Under the pieces are notes generated by a model, which saw only the letters and a list, made by a program, of their open reading frames with translations, ran no database searches and was not told the origin of the DNA. Both the position numbers and the translations under genes were made by a program. A stretch of DNA of 24,000 nt from an uncultured Pseudohongiella sp. (lineage in GTDB: Bacteria > Pseudomonadota > Gammaproteobacteria > Pseudomonadales > Pseudohongiellaceae): contig OZ241324.1 of the NCBI GenBank assembly GCA_965199785.1, positions 59,329 through 83,328 of the forward strand, given 5' to 3'. Shown here one piece after another: positions 5,124-22,805 of this stretch (its first letter is position 1; every line of letters starts with the position of its first letter).

Positions 5124-5252
5124 GCGGGCGCCGGGCGCTTTACCGCCGGTAACTGAATGCTTTCCCGGCTTGCGCCGGGCCCCTTTCAGTCACCGTCGCG
5201 CGCCCTCAGTGCCAGCGTCGAATCAGCAACGCCGGCGGGTGACTGCCACGAC

Positions 5253-5378
5253 GTTAGTCGCCGTCGGCTGGTGGAGTTCAGCGGGCGTGCGAGGCATGGA
5301 TGCCGAGCCCGAAGCGTACAGGGATGTATTCACAGCGTCCGCTGAACTCCACCAGCCAGACGGCGACGGATCGAAGCC
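5253..5378. repeat. Palindromic interspersed repeat, copy 1 (~126 bp, 28/29-nt inverted arms around a ~54-nt core)
   Basis: Left arm 5257-5284 (gtcgccgtcggctggtggagttcagcgg) is the reverse complement of right arm 5339-5367, apart from one bulged base. The whole element aligns with 22678-22805. Confidence 0.85.
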
Positions 5379-6130: not shown

Positions 6131-9100
6131 TCACAACCCCCACAGCACCCGCGCGTACCAGCGGCGGCCGCGGCCGTCGAACACCGCGCGGTCGAATGAA
6201 CCTCGCCGGTACAAGGGGATGTCGGCATTGGTCAGATCAATCACGCCGACGGTGAAATTCGCCGTGCCCCAGGAGGGATTGTCGAACTGGTGGCTGTAGG
6301 CGTATTGCACATCCCAAGTGTCGTAGCTGTCGGTTTTCGGCTTGGCGAAGGCGCGGTTGACCGGGCTCAGATTCGGGTTGATCTCCGGGTCCACATGGGA
6401 CTGGTGGCTGAGAATCTGGTACGAGCCGATGTGGCGGTTGAAGATCGAAACCCGGTGGTTATCGCGCATCCAGCTCAAGCTGATGGTGCCCCGGTTGTCC
6501 GGCACTTCGCGGACGATGTTCTGCTCGCCGTCGACGCCGGCGGCGTCGAAAATGCCGGTTTCCTGGAGGCCCAGTTCAAGGCCGGGCACATCGTTGACGT
6601 TGTAATGGTCGATGTGCGTGTAATCGAGATTGAGGCGGAACCGGCCCCAGTCGTGGTCCCAGTCGTAGCTGGCGCGGACATCGATGCCCTGCACCTGGAT
6701 ATTGCCCGCGTTCACCGCCGGCAGCACCAGGGTGATCAGGCCCGCGTTGGTGTCGGTGAGATTGCGCTGCACGCCATCGACCATGTACGCGGCGGGGTTG
6801 ACCACGCAGTTGCGCCGCTCGGCTGAATCGCGGCCGTGTTCGGCCTCAAGCGCCGCCGGATCGCAGGAGATGGGGAAGCCATCCGGGCCCCTGGCGTCGA
6901 GGGGGATGCTGCTGTTGAACACGAAGTTCGCCGGGTTTTGCACCGCCTCGTTGAATTTCTCGATTTCGGGATTCAAGGTGGCCCGGGGGATTTTCGGCAG
7001 CACCCGGTCCTCCACGTCGAAACGCCAGGCATCGGCGCCGATCAACAGGCCGTCGAGGGCACCATCCGGCGTCCATTGGAAGCCCACGCTGTAGGTGTCC
7101 GCGTTCTCGTTGCCAAGGTCCGGGTTGGGGGCGCCGACAGTGAACGACGAGTTCGACTGGGCGTTTTCGTTGGTCGCCGGCAGCAATCCGGCGCGCACGT
7201 CCTGGTTGCGGATCGGGTCGAGCACGCTGGTGGAGGAAGCCTCGAAAGCTTGATTGACCACGCCGATGTTCGGCGCCCGGAACGACTGCGAGAACGAGCC
7301 CCGCAGCAGCAGCTCGTCGACGGGCCGCCAGCTGAGCGCGACCTTGGGTGAAACCTGCGAGCCGATGTTGCCGCCGTAATCCTCCCAGCGCAGGGCGAGC
7401 TGGGATTCCACATTCTCGGCGAAAGGCAGCGAAAGCTCGAGGAACACCGCCTGAATGCTGCGCTCGTCGTCGAAGTTGAAGATGCAGTTGGAACACTCGA
7501 GGTTGTTGGTGATGCCGTCCGCATAGGCGTTGGGCCGGTCGTCGAGCAGCGGCAGCGGGTTGACCAGGCTCGCCCGGGTGCCGTTGTCGTCGTAGCCGGT
7601 AATCACCCGCAGGCCCGGCAGATTGATATCCGGCGCGATGCCCGCGGCGTTGCGCTGGCGGTACTGGTAGCCCGCGGCGAACTGGGCGGTGCCGCCGGTC
7701 ATCTCGAACAACTCGCCGGAAACCACCGCGTCGAACACGGTCAGCTTGTTGCGCTTGTCGGCGCGGAGGATGTCGCTGGCGGTCATCCAGTCGATCAATT
7801 CGGGGGAATTGGCCAGCGCCGGGTTCGAAAGCGCGGTCAGGTAGGGGTTGAAGAACTCGCAGCCGTCCTGGCCGTGGTTGCTGCTCGTCAGGGCGAGCGA
7901 CATCGTCTCCCGGGTGTTGAGGATGTAGCCGGGGAAAACAATGTCGAACAATCCGCCCAGCGGAGCAAAGGCCGGATGGCCGAGGAAGTTGAAGTTTTCG
8001 GTGCCGTTGGGCGTGCAATTCGGCCCGCCGAGGCCGACGATGGCGCGTTCGGTTCGATCGCGGATCAGCGTTTCATACTGCTGCTCGATGCTCGACCAGC
8101 TCCGCGAATACGAAACATCGTAGGACAGCGGACGGTCGGCAAGCTCTATTTCCCCGCGCAGGCCGAGTTGGGCGCCGGAAGTCACCGATTCGGTGATCCG
8201 GTCTTCCCCGGCCCGGGGCCAACCGGTGGAGATGGTGTCGCCACCGGTGTAATAGCCTTCGTTGAAGCCGCCGTTGGCGAGCGTGTGGGGATTGTTGCCG
8301 TTGTGGCCTTCCGGCAGCACCGGGTTGCCCGCGAACGCGCCGAACAGGCCGAGCCAGCCGGGCGAGGGCACCAGGTGCAGGGTGCGGGAAAAAGCGTAGC
8401 CGCTGCCCTGGCGCGTGGTTTCGATTTCCGAGTGCTGCGCGAAGGAGTAGAACTCGGCGTTGTCGCCGAAGGTATGCTCGAAACTGCCGGCGAAACTCGC
8501 GCGCTCCTGGCCGATGGCGATGAACTGCTCGGCCAGCGTGTCCTCGCGGCAGTTGCCATTGAGCCTGCCGATGTTGCTGAAGCGGTTGTCGATGAAAAAA
8601 TTGCCGTGATTGCCCCCGAGCGTGCCGCAAAGCGGGTCGGAAAAAACCGTGCCCTGGGTGCCGCTGACCGACTCGCCAAGGCCGATCCTCTCGGTGATGT
8701 TGCGCGTGGTCAGTTCACGGTTCACATAGGCGGGATTGATGTTCGCGCCCAGCGGCGAATTGATGCCGAAAGACCCCACCCTGCCGGTTGGGGTGATGCG
8801 CCCGGGGTCGAAATAGCTGGCGTGTTCGAGCGGCACCGGGTCGCGCTCGAAGTATTCGCCGGAAAGCACGAGCCGGGTGTCGCCGTTGTTGAAGCCCTCG
8901 CCCCAGATGCCGCTGAAGGTCTGCTCGTGGGAGCCGCCCGCATCGGCGATTCCCTGGGCTTCGGTGTACAGTTCCAGCCCTTCGAACCCGGTGCGCATGA
9001 TCACGTTGACCACGCCGGCGACGGCATCCGAGCCATACAGGGCCGAGCCGCCGTCGGTGAGCACTTCGATGCGCTCGGTCATCACCACCGGAATGCTGTT

Positions 9101-9505
9101 GAGATCGACCGACTCCTGGCCCGAGCTGGTGACCACGGCCGAAGGCGTGAAGCGCTTGCCGTTGATCAGCGTCAGCGTCGAGTTGCCGCCAAGATTGCGC
9201 AGATTGACCGAAGCCGTGCCGGCAAGCTGGCCGGCATCGTTCGAGCCCGCCACGCTGGTGTCCGACCCTTGGTTGACCTCAAGGTTGCGGATGACATCCC
9301 AGATCGCCGAGGCCCCCTGCGCCTCGATCGACGCCCGGTCGATAACCTGCACCGGCGAAGGCGCATCGAGCGGCGTGCCGCGAATGAACGACCCAGTAAC
9401 CACAACCTCCTCGATTTCCTCCTCCTGCGCCGCAGCCGGCAGCGCAAGCCCGGCGAGCACCGCCACCGTCAACAACCGCCTCGTTCCCGGAAACTTGCCT
9501 TGCAT
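6131..9505 (-). CDS. TonB-dependent outer-membrane receptor (large, 1124 aa)
   Basis: Signal peptide MQGKFPGTRRLLTVAVLAGLALPAAAQ. Then a TonB-box/plug region EEVVVTGSFIRGTPLDAPSPVQVIDRASIE...NLRNLGGNSTLTLINGKR...ERIEVLTDGGSALYGSDAVAGVVNVI. A long beta-barrel region follows. Confidence 0.92.
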   Translation of the reverse strand: MQGKFPGTRRLLTVAVLAGLALPAAAQEEEIEEVVVTGSFIRGTPLDAPSPVQVIDRASIEAQGASAIWDVIRNLEVNQGSDTSVAGSNDAGQLAGTASVNLRNLGGNSTLTLINGKRFTPSAVVTSSGQESVDLNSIPVVMTERIEVLTDGGSALYGSDAVAGVVNVIMRTGFEGLELYTEAQGIADAGGSHEQTFSGIWGEGFNNGDTRLVLSGEYFERDPVPLEHASYFDPGRITPTGRVGSFGINSPLGANINPAYVNRELTTRNITERIGLGESVSGTQGTVFSDPLCGTLGGNHGNFFIDNRFSNIGRLNGNCREDTLAEQFIAIGQERASFAGSFEHTFGDNAEFYSFAQHSEIETTRQGSGYAFSRTLHLVPSPGWLGLFGAFAGNPVLPEGHNGNNPHTLANGGFNEGYYTGGDTISTGWPRAGEDRITESVTSGAQLGLRGEIELADRPLSYDVSYSRSWSSIEQQYETLIRDRTERAIVGLGGPNCTPNGTENFNFLGHPAFAPLGGLFDIVFPGYILNTRETMSLALTSSNHGQDGCEFFNPYLTALSNPALANSPELIDWMTASDILRADKRNKLTVFDAVVSGELFEMTGGTAQFAAGYQYRQRNAAGIAPDINLPGLRVITGYDDNGTRASLVNPLPLLDDRPNAYADGITNNLECSNCIFNFDDERSIQAVFLELSLPFAENVESQLALRWEDYGGNIGSQVSPKVALSWRPVDELLLRGSFSQSFRAPNIGVVNQAFEASSTSVLDPIRNQDVRAGLLPATNENAQSNSSFTVGAPNPDLGNENADTYSVGFQWTPDGALDGLLIGADAWRFDVEDRVLPKIPRATLNPEIEKFNEAVQNPANFVFNSSIPLDARGPDGFPISCDPAALEAEHGRDSAERRNCVVNPAAYMVDGVQRNLTDTNAGLITLVLPAVNAGNIQVQGIDVRASYDWDHDWGRFRLNLDYTHIDHYNVNDVPGLELGLQETGIFDAAGVDGEQNIVREVPDNRGTISLSWMRDNHRVSIFNRHIGSYQILSHQSHVDPEINPNLSPVNRAFAKPKTDSYDTWDVQYAYSHQFDNPSWGTANFTVGVIDLTNADIPLYRRGSFDRAVFDGRGRRWYARVLWGL

Positions 9506-9739
9506 AACATTTACCCCTCAAGTTGAAGAAGACCTTCAGCTCTAAGGCTGATTCCGGCCAGAATTCCAAGGCCTCGGCCAACACGGCCAAGACCTGAAGC
9601 GAGTGTACTTCACCCCGCCAAAAAAACCAGCTTTTGCCGCACAGGAGCCGCACCGGAGCGCTGGAACCCAAGCCACTTTTGAGATAGGTTTTGCGCTGCC
9701 CGCAATCGCTGGAAATCCTATTTCATTGGGGACGTGGCC

Positions 9740-9982
9740 ATGGCAAGCATCACCATCCGCAACTTGGATGGCCAAGTGAAGACGCTTCTGCGCGTGCGGG
9801 CGGCCGCGAATCATCGCTCGATGGAAGAGGAGGCGCGATTAATCCTGCGCCAAGCCGTTGGAGCCAAGCCAAGTCCCCGCAATTTGGCGGAAATCGCCCA
9901 AGCCCACTTCGGCCCGGAAAACGGCGTGGATTTGGTGTTGCCGCCACGAGTGCCGGACCGGGAACCCCCATCGTTCGATTGA
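9740..9982 (+). CDS. Ribbon-helix-helix antitoxin, FitA/VapB-like (Arc/MetJ type)
   Basis: MASITIRNLDGQVKTLLRVRAAANHRSMEEEARLILRQAV is the typical FitA-like N-terminus. The ATG is at 9740 (the ORF track starts at GTG 9734). No PIN toxin gene follows. Confidence 0.75.
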   Translation: MASITIRNLDGQVKTLLRVRAAANHRSMEEEARLILRQAVGAKPSPRNLAEIAQAHFGPENGVDLVLPPRVPDREPPSFD

Positions 9983-9984
9983 GC

Positions 9985-10680
9985 GGCTGCTCATGTCCTT
10001 TCAGCTACCATACCATGGGCAAGGAATTGGATTGGCAGTATCGAACGGCCTAGTATATGCTCCATAATATGCTTGAGGCCTGCGGCTCCGGCGGGCTTAC
10101 CCCGGAGAAGGCCGTCGAGGGAGACGAAACCTACATTGGCGGCAAGCGTTGGGCCATCTCGAATAGCAAGCGCGAGGAACTGGCCGGAACGGCGTCCGGC
10201 CCTGTCCAGGAAATTCCGGTCGTCTGGTTCCGCGAGCGGGGGCGGGCGCGTTAAAGCCGTGGCGTTTACGGCGGATACAAGGATGGACTGAACCCTGTTG
10301 ATCAAGCTGGCGAAAAAGCACGTGGAAGATGGAGCCGCAGCCTGCACCGACGAGCATGCCGGCTATGCCGGATTGTACAAGGCGGGCTTCGAGCGCGAGG
10401 TCGTCAACCATTCCGTCAGGGAATACGCCAACGGGATGTGCCGCGTGAACGACAACATCGACCGCACGAGGGCACTCACGCCCCGCATCCTGATGGGCTG
10501 CAAGCCCCCCTACAAGAAACTGACAGCGGGCAACGAGCTGTCCAGCAAAATCGAGGCAGTGTCGTGAGAGCATGGCTTGCCGTGGAGAGGAAAGATTGGC
10601 GACAGATAATGCGCCATGCGTTGCGCGTTTTGGGAACCAAATATGCCCAGACCATTATGAGCGGGATGGAGGCGGCGAAA
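9985..10680 (+). pseudogene. IS1595-family (ISXO2-like) transposase remnant: N-terminally truncated, with an in-frame stop and frameshifts
   Basis: Fragments lie in alternating frames. They read ...MGKELDWQYRTA*YMLHNMLEA...VEGDETYIGGKRWAISNSKREELAGT, then ACTDEHAGYAGL...REVVNHSVREYANG, then a C-terminal-like ERKDWRQIMRHALRVLGTKYAQTI. TAG at 10051-10053 sits where family members have Trp (KTAW). The N-terminal zinc-ribbon region is absent. Confidence 0.7.
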
Positions 10681-10681
10681 C

Positions 10682-11593
10682 ATGGATAATAGCCTCTTGG
10701 TGATTAACGGCGACTGCGAGGCGGTCATTCGCGACAGGACGATTCCACACGGTTCTGTGAATCTGATAGTGACATCGCCACCCTACGCGGATCAGCGCAA
10801 AAATATTTATGGCGGCATCCATCCAGATGACTATGTGGACTGGTTCCTACCCAAAGCGGAGCAATTCAAAAACGCGCTCGCCGATGACGGCTCGTTTGTT
10901 CTGAACATCAAAGAGAAGGCGGTGAACGGCGAGCGGCACACGTATGTTTTGAATCTGATTTTGGCGCTGCGGGCGCAGGGCTGGCGGTGGGTGGAGGAAT
11001 ATTGCTGGCACAAGAAGAACTGTTATCCGGGATGGTGGCCAAACAGGTTCAGGGACGCATGGGAGCGTTGCCTGCATTTTACACTCAGCAAGAAATTCAA
11101 GATGCGACAGAAGTCGGTGATGGTCCCCATGGGCGATTGGTCCAAGGCGCGGCTCAAGAATCTGTCGGACACAGACAAGACAAGGGATGCGTCTAAATCA
11201 GGCAACGGTTTCGCCAAGAAAATCGAAAACTGGGTCGGCCGGGACATGGCGTACCCGTCAAATGTCTTGCACATGGCGACCGAGTGTGGTTACAAGAATC
11301 ACCCGGCGACATTTCCCACGGCATTGCCAGATTGGTTCATCCGGTTGTTTACGGATGAAGGCGATACGGTGCTTGACCCCTTCGCTGGTTCTGGAACCAC
11401 CTTGGTCGCGGCGCAAAAACTGAACCGAAAAGGGATAGGGATTGACATGAATGGGGAATACTGCGAACTGATTAAACAGAGGATCAACAATGGCGAATCC
11501 ACAATGGTGGCCGAGCGTGGAACTGGAAATAGACCGAATCATCGAGGGGTTTACGGACAAGTTGAGAGACAAGTTGCATGTCCAAGCGATTGA
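10682..11593 (+). CDS. Site-specific DNA methyltransferase, beta-class N4/N6 (PF01555-like), TSPPY motif
   Basis: Motif IV (NLIVTSPPYADQR) is near the N-terminus and motif I (VLDPFAGSGTTLVAAQKLNRKGIGIDM) near the C-terminus, which is the beta permutation. GGAGG lies 9 nt upstream of the ATG. The last ~35 codons overlap the next gene. Confidence 0.9.
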   Translation: MDNSLLVINGDCEAVIRDRTIPHGSVNLIVTSPPYADQRKNIYGGIHPDDYVDWFLPKAEQFKNALADDGSFVLNIKEKAVNGERHTYVLNLILALRAQGWRWVEEYCWHKKNCYPGWWPNRFRDAWERCLHFTLSKKFKMRQKSVMVPMGDWSKARLKNLSDTDKTRDASKSGNGFAKKIENWVGRDMAYPSNVLHMATECGYKNHPATFPTALPDWFIRLFTDEGDTVLDPFAGSGTTLVAAQKLNRKGIGIDMNGEYCELIKQRINNGESTMVAERGTGNRPNHRGVYGQVERQVACPSD

Positions 11594-12314
11594 AATATTG
11601 GGGCGGAAAAATCCTTTCTTGTTCCGTGTCCGCTCTGGCGATGACGCGAAAGAACTCTCCAAGATGGTTATAGATGCCTATTTGTCTTCGAGCGAGGAGA
11701 CGATGTTCGGAAACATTTTGGAAGAGATTGCGATTTCCGTTTGCGCAAACGCCAAAGGCGGCAGCAAATCATCGGCGGAGGGTATTGACTTGGAATATGA
11801 CAATGGCGCGGAGAGAACCTTGATTCAAGTCAAGTCGGGTCCGAACTGGGGGAATTCAAGTCAAAGAAAGAAGCTGGTGGACAACTTCAACAGCGCCAGA
11901 AGGAGGTTGGGGGCGTCAGGGTTGAGCGTTCGATGTATTGAAGGTATCTGCTACGGGAGCCGCCAGGAAAAGCATTATGGAACCCACACGGCGCTGAGAG
12001 GGACGGCTTTTTGGGAAGATATATCCGACTGGACTGGAACCCATCTTGCCATTGGTGGCCGGTTGGGTATACATGCGAGAAATGGCTTGAATGAACCGAA
12101 GGATCAAGCCAGAGAAAAATGGTGGATTTCCTCCGGCAGCATGGGGCCGCTAAAGAAAACAAGATCAACTGGAATGGGATGTTTGACTTGCTGTTTTAAC
12201 GGAACCGGGCGAATGAACAACCGCGCCGCATGGTGTCCCGAGGCATCGGCGAAATTCACGGACAGGGAAACGACATCACCACCCCCAATCTCGCCCGCAT
12301 CAACATGCAGCTGA
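11490..12314 (+). CDS. Type II restriction-endonuclease-like protein (PD-(D/E)xK candidate); probable frameshift near the 3' end
   Basis: Blocks NPFLFRVRSG, YLSSSEETMFGNILEEIAI and GIDLEYDNGAERTLIQVKSGPNWGNSSQ resemble, from memory, the TdeIII/Eco47II/PmeII-like REase group. After about 12117 the ORF tail becomes non-protein-like (WWISSGSMGPLKKTRSTGMGCLTCCF...). The frame starting at 12116 instead reads KMVDFLRQHGAAKENKINWNGMFDLLF and stops at 12197-12199. Confidence 0.6.
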   Translation: MANPQWWPSVELEIDRIIEGFTDKLRDKLHVQAIEILGRKNPFLFRVRSGDDAKELSKMVIDAYLSSSEETMFGNILEEIAISVCANAKGGSKSSAEGIDLEYDNGAERTLIQVKSGPNWGNSSQRKKLVDNFNSARRRLGASGLSVRCIEGICYGSRQEKHYGTHTALRGTAFWEDISDWTGTHLAIGGRLGIHARNGLNEPKDQAREKWWISSGSMGPLKKTRSTGMGCLTCCFNGTGRMNNRAAWCPEASAKFTDRETTSPPPISPASTCS

Positions 12315-12455
12315 GCGGCTTGAAGGATAACGAGTTCGGTACTTAGCAAGAACTACTTGGCATTTTAGGAAACGGTTTTTTGCCATAACTGATCTTGATT
12401 TCAAACACGAATCAACGATCTAAATTCACAGTAGCTTACCGAACAGGAAACTTCC

Positions 12456-13850
12456 ATGGGCATAAGAATACAACCTATTGAAATTGAAGTTCCCGAAGAT
12501 AACCCTTTCGCGAATGACTCGCTTGAACGAGAAGAGCCCATTAAAGTTCTCACTCACCTTCTTCACTCAATTGATGGCCCTTGTGTCCTCGCTGTTGACG
12601 CAGCATGGGGTGAAGGAAAATCCACGTTTCTCAGATTGTGGTCTCAGTACTTGCGTAATCAAGGTTTTCCAGTCATTGAGTTCAATGCTTGGTTAACCGA
12701 CTTTTCAGATGAACCTTTCCTTGTTTTGTCCACGGAATTGACGGAAGGATTCAAAGATTATCCAAAGGGTGCGGCAGCGGAGAGAATTGCCGAAACGAAG
12801 AAATTGGCAAAAGATATATTCAGACAAACCGCTACATCGGCTGCCCGCGTTTTTTCATCAGGTCTCGTTGATATTGATGCTTTAATGAAACAACGGTTTT
12901 CTAGGTACAACGAATCTAAAGATCTAATAGAGAACTTTAAAAGCACCTTAAAGGAAATGGCCGCGGCGGTATCAAAATGTAAAAAAAAGAATTCAATGAT
13001 AGTAGTGATTGATGAGTTGGACCGGTGCAGGCATTCCTACGCTGTGGGGCTATTGGAGGCAGCCAAACATCTGTTCTCTGTTAATGGCATCATTTTTGTT
13101 CTTGCCGTTAACCGCACTCAGCTTGCCCATTCAATAAAGGCACTGTATGGCCGAGATTTTGATTCCTTGGGTTACTTGCAAAGATTTATTGACATAGATT
13201 TTCAACTTCCCCTACCTAAGCGAAAGAAGTTTATTGAAAACATCTTAACTACAATAAGCTTTTTAGATTATTTTGAGCGCACAAATGATGCTGATGCAAA
13301 GCAAAGCTTTCCATCTGTTAAGAAATTTTCGCAGAACATCTTTGAAACAACAGAGCTCAGTATTCGGCAGATATCACAAGCTTTCCACCGACTTGGTTTA
13401 GTGCTTGGATCGCTGCGAAGTGATCGCAGAGCATTCGCATATTCTGCTGTAGTGGCTATCTTCTTACGATCAATAAATGCTGGAATTTACCATAGGTTTT
13501 GCCGTGGTGAGATAACGGATCTCGAAGTCGTGGATGAGATATTAAACTATCCTGGAATCAGAATTCTCCAAGGAACACATGATGGATGTCTGATTGAGGC
13601 ATACATAACTGAGGGAGCAAAAGAGATTTTGAGGAAAAACTCTCCAGAAGAAGATATTAAATCCCCATTATTGACAAGATATCGGAGTATTATCGAATCT
13701 GGAAATTCTAGTTCGAAAAAAGATCAGATGCGTGCGGAGAAGGTTATTGAATTGATTGAGTATCTCAGCAAGCATCCTAATCACGTAGGCTTCCTGTACT
13801 CAGTAAGTCGAATTGAGCTACTTACACCTGAGCTAATTAAATCAGATTAG
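12456..13850 (+). CDS. KAP-family P-loop NTPase (soluble, no obvious TM insert)
   Basis: Walker A is in VLAVDAAWGEGKSTFL. Also present are FNAW, Walker B MIVVIDELDRC, and LLEAAKHLFSVNGIIFVLAVN, the PF07693-type layout. The gene is strongly AT-rich relative to the window. Confidence 0.88.
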   Translation: MGIRIQPIEIEVPEDNPFANDSLEREEPIKVLTHLLHSIDGPCVLAVDAAWGEGKSTFLRLWSQYLRNQGFPVIEFNAWLTDFSDEPFLVLSTELTEGFKDYPKGAAAERIAETKKLAKDIFRQTATSAARVFSSGLVDIDALMKQRFSRYNESKDLIENFKSTLKEMAAAVSKCKKKNSMIVVIDELDRCRHSYAVGLLEAAKHLFSVNGIIFVLAVNRTQLAHSIKALYGRDFDSLGYLQRFIDIDFQLPLPKRKKFIENILTTISFLDYFERTNDADAKQSFPSVKKFSQNIFETTELSIRQISQAFHRLGLVLGSLRSDRRAFAYSAVVAIFLRSINAGIYHRFCRGEITDLEVVDEILNYPGIRILQGTHDGCLIEAYITEGAKEILRKNSPEEDIKSPLLTRYRSIIESGNSSSKKDQMRAEKVIELIEYLSKHPNHVGFLYSVSRIELLTPELIKSD

Positions 13851-14349
13851 TCGTCAAGACGTAATACGCCTTATAACACATTCAGCAAACATAATCGGAT
13901 TCACTGCTGTCATAACGCTTCTCTCACGGACTCGCGTAAAATATTGTAATTACTGGACAATCCAGCCTCCAACCCCCGTCATCGATTTAAACCGCGCTGT
14001 CGAATATCGGCATCCTGTGTGCGGTTGCGGCCCACGACGGATTCGACCGTCGGTTCAGCCTAGCAGCGCCCGTCGCAGGAATTCGTCGAACGAGGGACCG
14101 CGAAGCCAGCGTCACCGTGGACGGGACTGCAGATCATGCCTTTTGCGATGAGTTCAGCGCGAGTTGGGACGACGGCTCCCACGCCTCTCTGGTGGATTCC
14201 CTGAACGACACGGTCTTGGCCCCAGTTCCGCCATGGCCCACAAATTGTGCTTTTCAGGCGGAGCCAGTCGGTCGAAGCGGTCGCGGACCTTGTTTCAGCC
14301 GCATCAGTCTGGGCCGGGCGCACGTATCAATCATGCGCATAGCGCCCTC

Positions 14350-14535
14350 TCATGCGATCATGCGAACTCCCTTCAATGAGTGCAACCGGAAACCCGGCGC
14401 GTCCGCGTTGCGCGGATGCGTCGCCTCTTGAAGTCGGAACAGAATACGCTTCAGTCGCGGCGCTATTCCGGCGGGCACCCCTGCGGGATTGCCCCGCTCG
14501 TGCAACGCCCGTAGCCCCTTGTGCCTGATCTTCAT
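14350..14535 (-). pseudogene. HigB-like (RelE/ParE superfamily, plasmid-maintenance killer) toxin remnant
   Basis: From ATG 14535: MKIRHKGLRALHERGNPAGVPAGIAPRLKRILFRLQEATHPRNADAPGFRLHSLKG matches the HigB N-terminal two-thirds. The frame then ends at VRMIA*. The expected DR.G.YA continuation (DRMRGRYA) is in another frame, which also terminates. Confidence 0.55.
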
Positions 14536-14641
14536 CCCACACTGTAACGCACCACGCCACAAGTGGCAGCGTCTGTTGCGTAGGAGAGCTGAAACCCTTT
14601 AGCTTGAATGCAGTCCTTGCCAAGTCCATCCAAGCGGGGGT

Positions 14642-14944
14642 ATGGTAGCCACCATGACTTCCGTATCGATGACAGATCTCAAGGCGAACCTGTCGCGCTA
14701 TATCCGCGAGGTTCGACGGGGCGGCGAAGTAGAGGTGCTCGACCGGGGAACGCCGGTGGCCTTGATCACCAAGCCAAAGTCGATCCCAAAGCCCAGCGGC
14801 AACGATGCCTTTGAGGAGATGATCCGGGCGGGTGTGCTGACCCGAGGCAATGGGTGCGCGCGGGAGATTCTGGATAAGCCCCTGATCGATTTGGGCGGCG
14901 GCCTTTCCTCACTGATTATTGAAGATCGCGAAGATCGGGTGTGA
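14642..14944 (+). CDS. Phd/YefM-family antitoxin
   Basis: MTSVSMTDLKANLSRYIREVRRGGEVEVLDRGTPVALI is a typical Phd/YefM N-terminal domain. Alternative ATGs are at 14654 and 14669. The stop overlaps a downstream GTG (GTGA coupling). Confidence 0.8.
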   Translation: MVATMTSVSMTDLKANLSRYIREVRRGGEVEVLDRGTPVALITKPKSIPKPSGNDAFEEMIRAGVLTRGNGCAREILDKPLIDLGGGLSSLIIEDREDRV

Positions 14945-15062
14945 GGTATTGGGATCCATCGGCGCTTGTGCGCCGCGAAACCATCCAGCCTCCGACTCCA
15001 CCCGAACCCCAGACCCGGGCCGAAACGTTTCTTCGCCGGCGTCCCCATCGAACCGGACCGGT
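14941..15062 (+). pseudogene. VapC-like PIN toxin remnant (only ~40 N-terminal codons before the CoxL-like gene)
   Basis: GTG at 14941 overlaps the antitoxin stop. (V/M)RYWDPSALV matches the VapC N-terminus, including the first acidic residue. The rest of the 112-aa ORF is antisense to the CoxL-like gene and is not PIN-like. Confidence 0.45.
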
Positions 15063-17351
15063 TTACTGGTTGATAATAGCCCACAACCTTTGCGGGGTTG
15101 CTGGCATGTCGATGTTGTCGGTGCCTAGGGCGTTGGCGATGGCGTTGATTATCGCGGGTGGGGCGCCGATGGCGCCGGCTTCTCCGGCGCCTTTGATGCC
15201 GAGTGGGTTGGTTTCGCAGCGGACGAGGTGGAGCGAGAAGTCGATGTCGCGGCAGTCGTCGGCCCGGGGCATGGTGTAGTCCATGAAGCTCGCGGTGAGC
15301 AACTGGCCGGAATCCGGGTCGTAGTGGCAGTCCTCGAGCAGGGCCTGGCCGAGGCCCTGGGCGATGCCGCCGTGGACTTGGCCGAGCAGCAGGTTGGGGT
15401 TGATCACCCGGCCGAAATCGTCGACCACGGTGAAGGCGATGATCTCCAGCGAGCCGGTTTCTGGGTCGATCTCGACCTCGACGACGTGGACGCCGTTGGG
15501 ATAGGTTGACTCCGGCGGAGCGAAGCCCTCGGTTTCGTCGAACGCGGCGCCGCCATCGGCGGGGGCGGCCTTGGCGGCGACTTCGGCGAAGCCCGCGCCG
15601 CGGTCGGTGCCGGCGATCTGAAACCGGCCCGCCTCGAAGTGAATGTCGGCGGGGGCCGCTTCGAGCATCTCGGCGGCTTGCTTGCCGGCGGTTTCGATCA
15701 GCTTGCCCGCGCAGGCGGAAATCGCCGCCCCGCCCACTGGCACCGAGCGCGAACCCATGGTGCCGCCACCGCTGGGCATGGCGTCGGAATCACCCTGGAT
15801 GATGGTGATCCGCTCCGGGTCGATGCCGAGCTGCTCGCAGATGATCTGCCGAAAGGCGGTCTCGTGGCCCTGGCCGTTGGACTGGGTGCCGATGAACAAG
15901 GTGACGCCGCCATCCGCGTCCACCCGCAGCCGCGCCTGTTCGGGCTGGCCGCCGGCGCAGCGCTCGATATAGCTCGCCACGCCGATGCCGCGCAGCTTTC
16001 CTTCCCGCTCAGCCAGCGCGCGCCTCGCCTCGAAGCCGTCCCAGCGGGATTTTTCCAGCGCGAGTTCGAGAATCTTTGGAAAGTCGCCGCTGTCGTAAAC
16101 CAAGCCGAGGGCGGTGCTGAAAGGCATTTCGGCGGCGGTTATGAGATTGCGGCGGCGCAGTTCCACTGGTGAGACCCCAAGCTGGCGCGCCGCCACGTCC
16201 ATCAGCCGCTCTATGGCGTAGATCGATTCCGGGCGGCCCGCGCCGCGGTAGGCGTCCACCGGAGCGGTGTTGGTGAACACGCCCTGCATGCGCACATGGA
16301 CGGCGGGCACCCGGTAACAGCCCGTAAGCATCGGCGCCCCGCCTTCGGAGGCGACAAAGGGCGAGAACGGCGACAGGCTCGAACCGAGATTGGCGATGGT
16401 GGAAACGCGCAGGCCGGTGAGGTTCAGCTCGGCGTCGAATCCGGCTTCGAGCCGGGTTACGTGGTCGCGGCCGTGGGCGTCGCTGAGGAAGGACTCGCCC
16501 CGGTCGGCGACCCATTTCACCGGCCTGCCGGTTTCCCGCGCGGCGTGGAGCGCGGCGATGTATTCCGGGTAGCAGGCGATCTTGGCGCCGAAGCCGCCGC
16601 CAACATCCTCGCAAATCACCCGCATGTCCCCGAAGCCGCAACCGAAAACCATCTGGGTGAGCAGGAAGCGCATGATGTGCACGCCCTGGCAGGAAACCCG
16701 CAGGACCATGCGGCCATCCTCGACCGCGGCGATGCAGCCCCTGGGCTCCATCGAATTCGGCGCTAGGCGGTTGTTGATGAGTTCGAATTCGACCCGGTGC
16801 GCCGCTTCCCCGAGCGCCGCCTCGGTCGCGCTCGCGTCGCCCGCGCGCCAGTCGAAGCAGCGGTTGTGGGGCGCGTCCTCCCACAGCCGCGGCGCGCTGT
16901 CGGCCATCGCTTCCCCGGTCGCGGCAACCGCCGGCAATTCCTCGTAATCGACGACGATCGACTCGGCGGCGTCGAGCGCCTGCATCCGGCTCTCGGCCAC
17001 AATCAAGGCGACCGGCTCGCCCACGTGGCGCACCCGGCCGATGGCGAGCGCGGGCCGCGGCGGTTTGTGGCACGACGAGCCATCCTCGCCCCGGGCGTCC
17101 ACGATGCACGGCACATCGCCGATGCCCGCGGCGCGCAAATCTTCCCCGGTGTAGATCCCGAGCACGCCGGGGGCGGAGCGGGCGGCATCGAGGTCGATGG
17201 CTTTCATTTCCGCGTGGGCATGGGGCGAGCGCAGAAACACGCCGATGGCCTGCTCCGGCGCGCGGCCGTCATCGAGATAAGACCCTTTTCCGGTGAGAAA
17301 GCGGCGGTCCTCGAAACGCGCCGCCGGCTGGCCGATGCCAAATTTGCTCAT
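15063..17351 (-). CDS. Molybdopterin-binding large subunit of the xanthine dehydrogenase / aerobic CO dehydrogenase family (form-II CoxL-like)
   Basis: MSKFGIGQPAARFEDRRFLTGKGSYLDD N-terminus. The AYRGAGR motif (VDAYRGAGRPE) is characteristic of form-II CoxL-like proteins. The ATG at 17351 is preferred over the track start at 17375. Confidence 0.9.
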   Translation of the reverse strand: MSKFGIGQPAARFEDRRFLTGKGSYLDDGRAPEQAIGVFLRSPHAHAEMKAIDLDAARSAPGVLGIYTGEDLRAAGIGDVPCIVDARGEDGSSCHKPPRPALAIGRVRHVGEPVALIVAESRMQALDAAESIVVDYEELPAVAATGEAMADSAPRLWEDAPHNRCFDWRAGDASATEAALGEAAHRVEFELINNRLAPNSMEPRGCIAAVEDGRMVLRVSCQGVHIMRFLLTQMVFGCGFGDMRVICEDVGGGFGAKIACYPEYIAALHAARETGRPVKWVADRGESFLSDAHGRDHVTRLEAGFDAELNLTGLRVSTIANLGSSLSPFSPFVASEGGAPMLTGCYRVPAVHVRMQGVFTNTAPVDAYRGAGRPESIYAIERLMDVAARQLGVSPVELRRRNLITAAEMPFSTALGLVYDSGDFPKILELALEKSRWDGFEARRALAEREGKLRGIGVASYIERCAGGQPEQARLRVDADGGVTLFIGTQSNGQGHETAFRQIICEQLGIDPERITIIQGDSDAMPSGGGTMGSRSVPVGGAAISACAGKLIETAGKQAAEMLEAAPADIHFEAGRFQIAGTDRGAGFAEVAAKAAPADGGAAFDETEGFAPPESTYPNGVHVVEVEIDPETGSLEIIAFTVVDDFGRVINPNLLLGQVHGGIAQGLGQALLEDCHYDPDSGQLLTASFMDYTMPRADDCRDIDFSLHLVRCETNPLGIKGAGEAGAIGAPPAIINAIANALGTDNIDMPATPQRLWAIINQ

Positions 17352-22677: not shown

Positions 22678-22805
22678 GTTAGTCGCCGTCTGGCCGGGTG
22701 GCGTTCAGCGGGCGTGCGAGACAGGATGTCGAGCCCGAAGCCTCCAGGGATGGATTCACGGCGTCCGCTGAACGCCACCCGGCCAGACGGCGACGGATCG
22801 GAGCC
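22678..22805. repeat. Palindromic interspersed repeat, copy 2 (perfect 30-bp inverted arms)
   Basis: Left arm 22682-22711 (gtcgccgtctggccgggtggcgttcagcgg) is the exact reverse complement of right arm 22765-22794. The element aligns end to end with 5253-5378. Confidence 0.85.

Follow-up and report, generated by a model that had tools for sequence, protein, structure and literature searches.

A type II restriction-modification pair beside a soluble PDC-S20-type KAP NTPase: probably two independent defence cassettes in a decaying Pseudohongiella island

Introduction

Defence by a single KAP-family P-loop NTPase has experimental precedent in EF_KAP of Enterococcus faecalis and in three metagenomic single-gene KAP NTPases, all of which block phage in a Walker B-dependent manner (PLoS Biol 2026, PMC13552941). 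The guilt-by-embedding screen of Payne et al. yielded PDC-S20 as a single-gene candidate; candidates of this screen are defined by their embedding in BREX, DISARM or type I systems, are regarded by the authors as independent systems and are described, as a set, as untested (bioRxiv 10.1101/2024.01.29.577857). Here, the gene for a soluble KAP NTPase that matches PDC-S20 is analysed together with the two restriction genes beside it, in a stretch of 24,000 nucleotides from an uncultured Pseudohongiella sp. (assembly GCA_965199785.1, contig OZ241324.1, positions 59,329 to 83,328 of the forward strand); this whole stretch is referred to as the window.

Several other described proteins invite comparison with the locus. 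PifA of the F plasmid (720 aa) and QatA (~600-650 aa) possess a KAP NTPase core, and RdrA, the ring-forming defence ATPase of RADAR (~830 aa), works with the RdrB deaminase. In the type I locus EcoprrI, the NTPase-containing protein PrrC, which carries an anticodon-nuclease domain, is located between hsdS and hsdR. PrrC is almost exclusively embedded (bioRxiv 10.1101/2024.01.29.577857), unlike most KAP family members.

The original prediction for the locus combined a beta-class methyltransferase gene, a gene for a restriction endonuclease-like protein and the KAP gene into a single defence module, with the caveat that the three might simply be stacked neighbours. All three co-oriented open reading frames (ORFs) are present. 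The comparisons below argue strongly that they make up two independent defence cassettes lying side by side in an old and decaying island, with KAP acting alone as its likeliest mode.

Results

The three genes are joined in one lineage only

The island measures ~5.4 kb and lies in a high-GC host between a TonB-dependent receptor gene and a xanthine-dehydrogenase-family gene (features in Table 1). It is available in six strain-level copies (the window, L001, L202, L203, L204 and L205). Outside this lineage, the neighbourhood of the KAP gene was sampled at the best 80 genome hits for the protein (L006-L085), almost all of them metagenome-assembled genomes, and an EcoO109I-type nuclease within 10 kb occurs at none of these 80 loci. 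N4/N6 methyltransferases appear near 3 of the 80, as weak and distant matches only. The converse sample comprises 36 loci encoding homologues of the nuclease, and a six-frame hidden Markov model (HMM) search finds a KAP gene at none of them. An orthologous methyltransferase (55-82% identity) stands directly 5' of the nuclease in 28 of the 36; four of the eight loci where it is not seen directly upstream have too little 5' sequence to judge.

The DNA itself divides into two blocks of homology. Similarity to L087, an unrelated contig, extends from window position 10451, inside a transposase remnant, to 12198 and then ends, and similarity to L003, a locus with a KAP protein 73% identical to that of the window, starts at 12384. 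The intervening ~185 bp include the GC-rich spacer 12200-12346. GC content shifts across the same region, from 52.4% in the methyltransferase gene and 49.9% in the nuclease gene through 58.5% in the spacer to 37.6% in 12347-12455 and 40.9% in the KAP gene, the flanking chromosomal genes standing at 64-68%. The neighbours of KAP also change from relative to relative: the L003 copy adjoins a split hsdM and toxin-antitoxin genes, and the L006 copy (61% identical) adjoins a 571-aa unknown protein. Since the linkage is absent elsewhere, the homology blocks are separate and the KAP neighbours differ, the trio is, as far as genome comparison reaches, a mosaic that exists in one lineage only.

A single three-gene system, in which KAP would control the type II enzyme or act as its back-up, would explain why the genes are adjacent, co-oriented and kept as a block in the six strain variants. 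Against it stand the missing linkage in both directions outside the lineage, the separate homology blocks and compositions with a foreign relic of ~185 bp between them, and the conserved leader that KAP has of its own. The genes have moreover met different fates: one deletion in L086 took KAP together with the 3' half of the nuclease gene and left the methyltransferase under purifying selection, and in the window the nuclease is frameshifted and KAP intact. Such a system is highly improbable. The predicted module is accordingly not supported, and the caveat of stacked neighbours, with two homology blocks, GC of 50-52% against 41% and a foreign GC-rich fragment between, fits the locus. The parts moreover have names already: PADLOC and HMM searches assign them to a type II restriction-modification pair and to PDC-S20.

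The methyltransferase and the nuclease are a mobile type II pair

The methyltransferase was correctly predicted to be of the beta class, with SPPY at residues 32-35 preceding FAGSGTT near residue 235. Its best solved relative is the N4-cytosine methyltransferase M.PvuII (1boo, E 2e-29), and its own specificity is probably N4-cytosine. Ratios of non-synonymous to synonymous substitution rates (dN/dS) of 0.07 against L086 and 0.06 against L087 indicate strong purifying selection.

The nuclease gene starts inside the methyltransferase gene, with an overlap of 104 nt that recurs in L087 and L088. An annotation artefact was considered as the origin of this overlap and rejected: the nuclease N-terminus, with P4, W6 and W7, is conserved family-wide, and the overlap is therefore real. 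The family profile of the nuclease matches the EcoO109I structure 1wtd (E 3.3e-5), the C-terminal helices included.

In L087 (4098-6660, corresponding to window 10057-12198), the orthologous pair follows an intact IS1595 transposase gene (207 aa), and window 10451-10590 retains 76% DNA identity to the 3' end of that transposase gene. The presence of the IS1595 transposase before the pair in L087 as well suggests that the pair is mobilised together with this insertion sequence. Judged by gene order and homology, the two genes make up a type II restriction-modification system that is mobile and complete in itself.

With the type IIP enzymes EcoO109I and M.PvuII this pair shares the PF14511 match, the profile match to 1wtd, an M.PvuII-like methyltransferase and the pairing in 28 loci. 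The window nuclease is only distantly related to EcoO109I, to which it has no single-sequence match, and the partners differ, EcoO109I being paired with a C5 methyltransferase and the window nuclease with an SPPY beta-class enzyme.

The window nuclease is frameshifted

The metagenome contig L001, which shares 98.6% identity with window 9654-14512, has one additional base at 12115 (GATAAAATGG vs GAAAAATGG), and its nuclease is a protein of 236 aa that ends in ...NWNGMFDLLF at the equivalent of window 12199. The same intact length is found in L202, L203 and L205, and an identical 1-bp deletion is found in the window and in L204. This deletion replaces the conserved last 27 residues of the nuclease, so that window 12117-12314 is the out-of-frame tail of the called ORF and the window contains no intact full-length endonuclease. 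For the predicted restriction endonuclease-like gene, the PD-(D/E)xK-type family call is thus correct, and the ORF on which it was made is the frameshifted one, the native stop lying at 12199.

Homologues of the nuclease are 236-257 aa long and span the whole of the intact query. The lost C-terminus is conserved across the family, W228 being nearly invariant, and aligns to the C-terminal helices of EcoO109I. Having lost these 27 conserved residues, the window nuclease probably has impaired activity or none, and the methyltransferase would then in effect be an orphan. Decay of the nuclease with the methyltransferase under purifying selection is the usual route from a restriction-modification pair to an orphan methylase.

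KAP is an intact, soluble member of the PDC-S20 family

The KAP protein exceeds the PF07693 cut-off of 20 bits by a wide margin (Table 1). Its Walker A (GEGKST) and Walker B (VVIDELDRC, residue 183) motifs are intact, every column that is invariant across 28 homologues is retained, and a dN/dS of 0.18-0.26 indicates purifying selection. The protein has no transmembrane segment: the highest Kyte-Doolittle mean over 19 residues is 1.53, and no top window falls between the Walker motifs. It thus lacks the transmembrane helices that many KAP members, not all, carry inserted in the NTPase domain. In the AlphaFold2 model, with a predicted local distance difference test score (pLDDT) of 78 and a predicted template-modelling score (pTM) of 0.68, residues 107-175 form a soluble helical hairpin at this position, and the P-loop core is followed by an all-helical C-terminal domain. 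The C-terminal 169 residues modelled alone fold into a nine-helix domain (pLDDT 82, pTM 0.81) that matches no Pfam family and no fold in the PDB (best E 0.53). The original description of a 464-aa KAP NTPase with both Walker motifs, no hydrophobic insert between them and no recognisable effector holds in each of these respects.

Across its full length, the protein matches the PADLOC model PDLC04959 of PDC-S20 (E 5.3e-113, 377 bits, model positions 4-460 of 464), and it also matches three sister PDC-S20 models. This agrees with its earlier designation as an uncharacterised defence candidate. At the sequence level, no difference from PDC-S20 is detectable; the window copy is not embedded in any system, whereas some relatives sit inside type I operons, in agreement with the way in which PDC candidates were defined. 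The family is very large: a word-indexed search gives 1,326 hits at E<=1e-5, and at E<=1e-30 there are 2,415 cluster representatives (clusters at 50% identity), almost all of them collinear and 460-500 aa long. Public annotation reads 'P-loop NTPase fold protein' only, and the DefensePredictor and modularity-network preprints make no mention of KAP.

The best 80 genome hits come from Binatia, Latescibacterota, Nitrospirales, Dehalococcoidia/SAR202, Caldilineaceae, Ca. Porisulfidus, Ca. Palauibacter and similar taxa, a set that we take to be typical of marine sponge symbiont communities. If this is correct, it would imply wide horizontal spread of the KAP gene within one habitat. KAP relatives are also encoded on 353 viral or prophage contig stretches in IMG/VR; the 80 loci kept (L122-L201) show 24-36% identity to the window protein, many of them coming from one metagenome (3300045988).

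Comparison with RADAR, Qat, PifA and EF_KAP

The best solved fold for the KAP model is that of the RdrA rings of RADAR (8hr8, 8fnu; E 7e-6 to 1e-4; query template-modelling score, TM, ~0.45), followed by Cdc6/Orc1, clamp-loader and FtsH-type AAA+ proteins; searches of the PDB with the single sequence and with a profile give nothing useful. RdrA is the longer protein, its sequence identity to the window protein is 10-14%, and no RdrB-like adenosine-deaminase partner is found beside the window KAP, where no large neighbouring ORF exists.

PifA and QatA share the KAP NTPase core with the window protein (PADLOC PifA E 7.5e-20, QatA E 1e-12). Both are larger, and the matches cover parts of that core only. 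The suggested link to QatA holds for the shared KAP domain and stops short of the equivalog level, the match to the NCBIfam QatA model NF041923 being partial and scoring 43.9 bits against a cut-off of 600 bits. No qatB, qatC (QueC-like) or qatD (TatD-like) gene lies near KAP, and the ORFs 3' of it are short fragments and a Phd antitoxin gene.

In overall logic the window protein resembles the EF_KAP group, in which a single gene encodes a KAP NTPase whose C-terminal region has neither a known domain nor a known fold. The model of EF_KAP has two transmembrane helices, of which one lies within the NTPase domain, whereas the window KAP is soluble.

The spacer and the KAP leader

The translation of the spacer (IHGQGNDITTPNLARINMQLSGL) gives a weak match to PF02384 (E 0.014, below the cut-off) and aligns, at E 0.1-1 in each case, to one conserved HsdM motif in ~17 loci. 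The spacer is not under coding constraint, as is shown by indels that break its frame in L202 and L203. In a collection of 5.8 billion proteins, a search for its origin returns only strain variants of the same island. As a hint, the spacer may be the relic of an N6-adenine methyltransferase gene of the HsdM type. Downstream of it, the KAP leader ends in an AGGAA ribosome-binding site 6 nt 5' of the ATG.

KAP relatives and type I restriction operons

Neighbours were clustered at 81 KAP loci, where hsd genes lie within 6 kb in 21 and are absent in 60. No hsd gene is present anywhere in the 24-kb window. In ten loci (L007, L009, L011, L014, L016, L030, L043, L049, L057 and L069, with KAP at ~10001 in each), the order hsdM-(x)-hsdS-KAP-(x)-hsdR is found on one strand, and in eight of these ten the KAP start follows hsdS by 7-45 bp. 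The ten loci belong to Binatia, Terriglobia, Nitrospirales, Arenicellales, Gammaproteobacteria and Ca. Versatilivorator, and their type I systems constitute one lineage, with HsdM 75-89% and HsdR 75-93% identical. The embedded KAP proteins are more diverged (47-89% identity), in a manner that tracks HsdM (r 0.83) and HsdR (r 0.91), and they fall in the clade nearest the window protein. Other hsd genes near KAP relatives belong to other type I families.

The genes directly beside KAP are heterogeneous at the 60 loci that lack hsd genes and include recombinases, housekeeping genes and some defence genes (ResIII, N6_N4 methyltransferase, BrxL, type ISP, PstI-type nuclease, RES toxin). Apart from the type I subset, no KAP neighbour is conserved across the 81 loci. 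Such heterogeneity around the non-embedded copies fits a single-gene system. A link of KAP to restriction, as originally suggested, is thus seen often with type I operons and not with the type II pair of the window.

The embedded copies raise the alternative that KAP is a PrrC-like guard of restriction, firing when a phage disables the restriction enzyme, and that the window copy has been re-deployed beside a type II system or orphaned from a lost type I system. Relatives of the window protein do hold the position of PrrC between hsdS and hsdR, in ten loci from several bacterial groups with one type I lineage, and their divergence follows HsdM and HsdR. The embedded copies belong to the nearest clade, a split hsdM adjoins the L003 KAP, and a possible hsdM-like relic lies just 5' of the window KAP. 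This relic is statistically weak (E 0.014), however, and passive hitch-hiking within a transferred cassette would be expected to produce co-divergence as well. Unrelated defence genes are commonly found embedded in type I operons (bioRxiv 10.1101/2024.01.29.577857). The window, with no hsd gene, lacks the type I location found in the ten relatives, and the window KAP, with its all-helical C-terminus of no Pfam or fold match, lacks the anticodon-nuclease domain of PrrC. Since the 60 of 81 loci without hsd genes have heterogeneous neighbours, KAP evidently works without a type I partner. A role as guard is unlikely for the window protein.

The same can be put for the family as a whole. PDC-S20 would then have arisen as the operonic partner of one type I lineage, an arrangement largely persisting in the nearest clade, and would set off a further layer of defence on detecting either phage interference with restriction or the products of restriction. 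The window copy, located next to a type II system and a possible hsdM relic, would have been re-wired or orphaned. The evolution of KAP is faster than that of HsdM and HsdR, which is what an arms race would impose on a sensor. Such a restriction-linked sentinel is given only a small chance.

Edges and decay of the island

Both edges of the island carry antitoxin genes (Table 1), and no cognate toxin gene for either the FitA-like or the Phd/YefM antitoxin is recognisable at the island, which fits an island in decay. Two further ORFs were considered as toxin-like and dropped for want of Pfam or NCBIfam support: 14350-14562 on the minus strand as HigB-like and 14941-15279 as PIN-like. A promoter and terminator scan of 9500-15100 gives chance-level matches and none 5' of KAP, an Rfam scan of 9000-15500 gives no match, and a repeat search for island boundaries or insertion-sequence ends returns short chance-level matches only.

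Table 1 Features of the island and its edges, in window coordinates
Feature	Position	Strand	Evidence and remarks
Orphan FitA-like ribbon-helix-helix antitoxin gene, left island edge	9734..9982	+	PF22513, E 4e-18; in all strain variants
IS1595-family transposase remnants	10057..10567 (ORF fragments 10057-10254, 10298-10567)	+	PF12762, E 5e-3 and 5e-6
Beta-class DNA methyltransferase, SPPY, 303 aa	10682..11593	+	PF01555, E 1.8e-42; PADLOC MTase_II, E 5.5e-49
EcoO109I-family type II restriction endonuclease	11490..12199; ORF as called to 12314	+	PF14511 RE_EcoO109I, E 9.6e-48
GC-rich non-coding spacer	12200..12346		58.5% GC; possible HsdM-type N6-adenine methyltransferase relic
KAP leader, ~70 bp	12384..12455	+	DNA similarity to L003 begins 12384; conserved in L006
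Soluble KAP-family P-loop NTPase, 464 aa	12456..13850	+	PF07693, E 2.7e-36, 125.8 bits
Phd/YefM-family antitoxin gene, near right island edge	14642..14944	+	PF02604, E 5.7e-9; TIGR01552, E 4.9e-8

In L086 (~91% DNA identity; 6872-8425 against window 10073-14674), the island occupies the identical chromosomal site and has lost the equivalent of window 11866-14674, that is, the 3' half of the nuclease gene and the entire KAP gene. This deletion indicates that the island is decaying. Two small deletions are also seen in the transposase remnant of L086, and its methyltransferase frame is apparently retained through a different upstream start.

The decay bears on a further explanation, in which KAP has no defence role and serves the upkeep or selfish spread of mobile DNA, or is a passenger in decay, the restriction pair alone being or having been defence. 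Transposase fragments, orphan antitoxins, the frameshifted nuclease and the L086 deletion accord with a passenger; some KAP relatives have housekeeping neighbours, and PDC-S20 is a candidate family only. Against this, the gene itself is intact, with all invariant residues and a dN/dS in the range of purifying selection. The family is enriched beside restriction, BREX and toxin genes, relatives of ~30% identity occur on viral and prophage contigs, the protein is homologous to PifA and QatA, and a defence function has been demonstrated for other KAP NTPases (PMC13552941). A KAP without a role in defence is therefore considered doubtful, at a low probability.

Elsewhere in the window, a repeat of ~125 nt occurs at 5252-5378 and 22678-22805, and again in L003 (14410-14535) and L086 (799-927). 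It folds as a long near-perfect hairpin (-82.7 kcal/mol, z -7.6), belongs to no Rfam family and looks like a repeat of the repetitive extragenic palindromic (REP) or miniature inverted-repeat transposable element (MITE) type.

Discussion

The locus is best described as two cassettes. The first is the IS1595-associated type II operon, in which the methyltransferase would mark host DNA and the EcoO109I-family PD-(D/E)xK nuclease, where intact, would cut unmarked incoming DNA. The second is the single KAP gene with its own leader, whose product would most likely act alone as a nucleotide-dependent switch that recognises a phage component. What is observed for KAP is its fold, its motifs, the purifying selection on it and its genomic contexts; for its mechanism, we infer that it may assemble into an RdrA-like ring and may block infection through its NTPase cycle together with the helical C-terminal domain specific to the family.

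Several observations weigh against independent action of this kind. The conservation of the trio as a block in six strain-level variants makes co-function within this lineage conceivable, and the long-standing association of KAP relatives with a type I restriction operon is a hint that members of the family may sometimes act with a partner. The match to RdrA is moderate only (TM 0.46). The validated KAP defence proteins carry transmembrane helices and the window KAP has none (PMC13552941). A literature search turned up no paper mentioning PDC-S20, which is an untested candidate. The nuclease frameshift, for its part, is shared by the window with a single further assembly, L204, possibly from the same sample, and could be an assembly error at GAGAAAAATGG.

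In conclusion, the locus is an ordinary one, a type II pair and a catalogued single-gene candidate that are neighbours by chance, and recognising this spares the pursuit of a spurious three-gene system. Its remaining value lies in a very large family of ~480-aa soluble KAP NTPases without a recognisable effector. The co-divergence of the nearest clade with a type I operon raises, for this family, the question whether a soluble KAP NTPase defends on its own or guards restriction systems.

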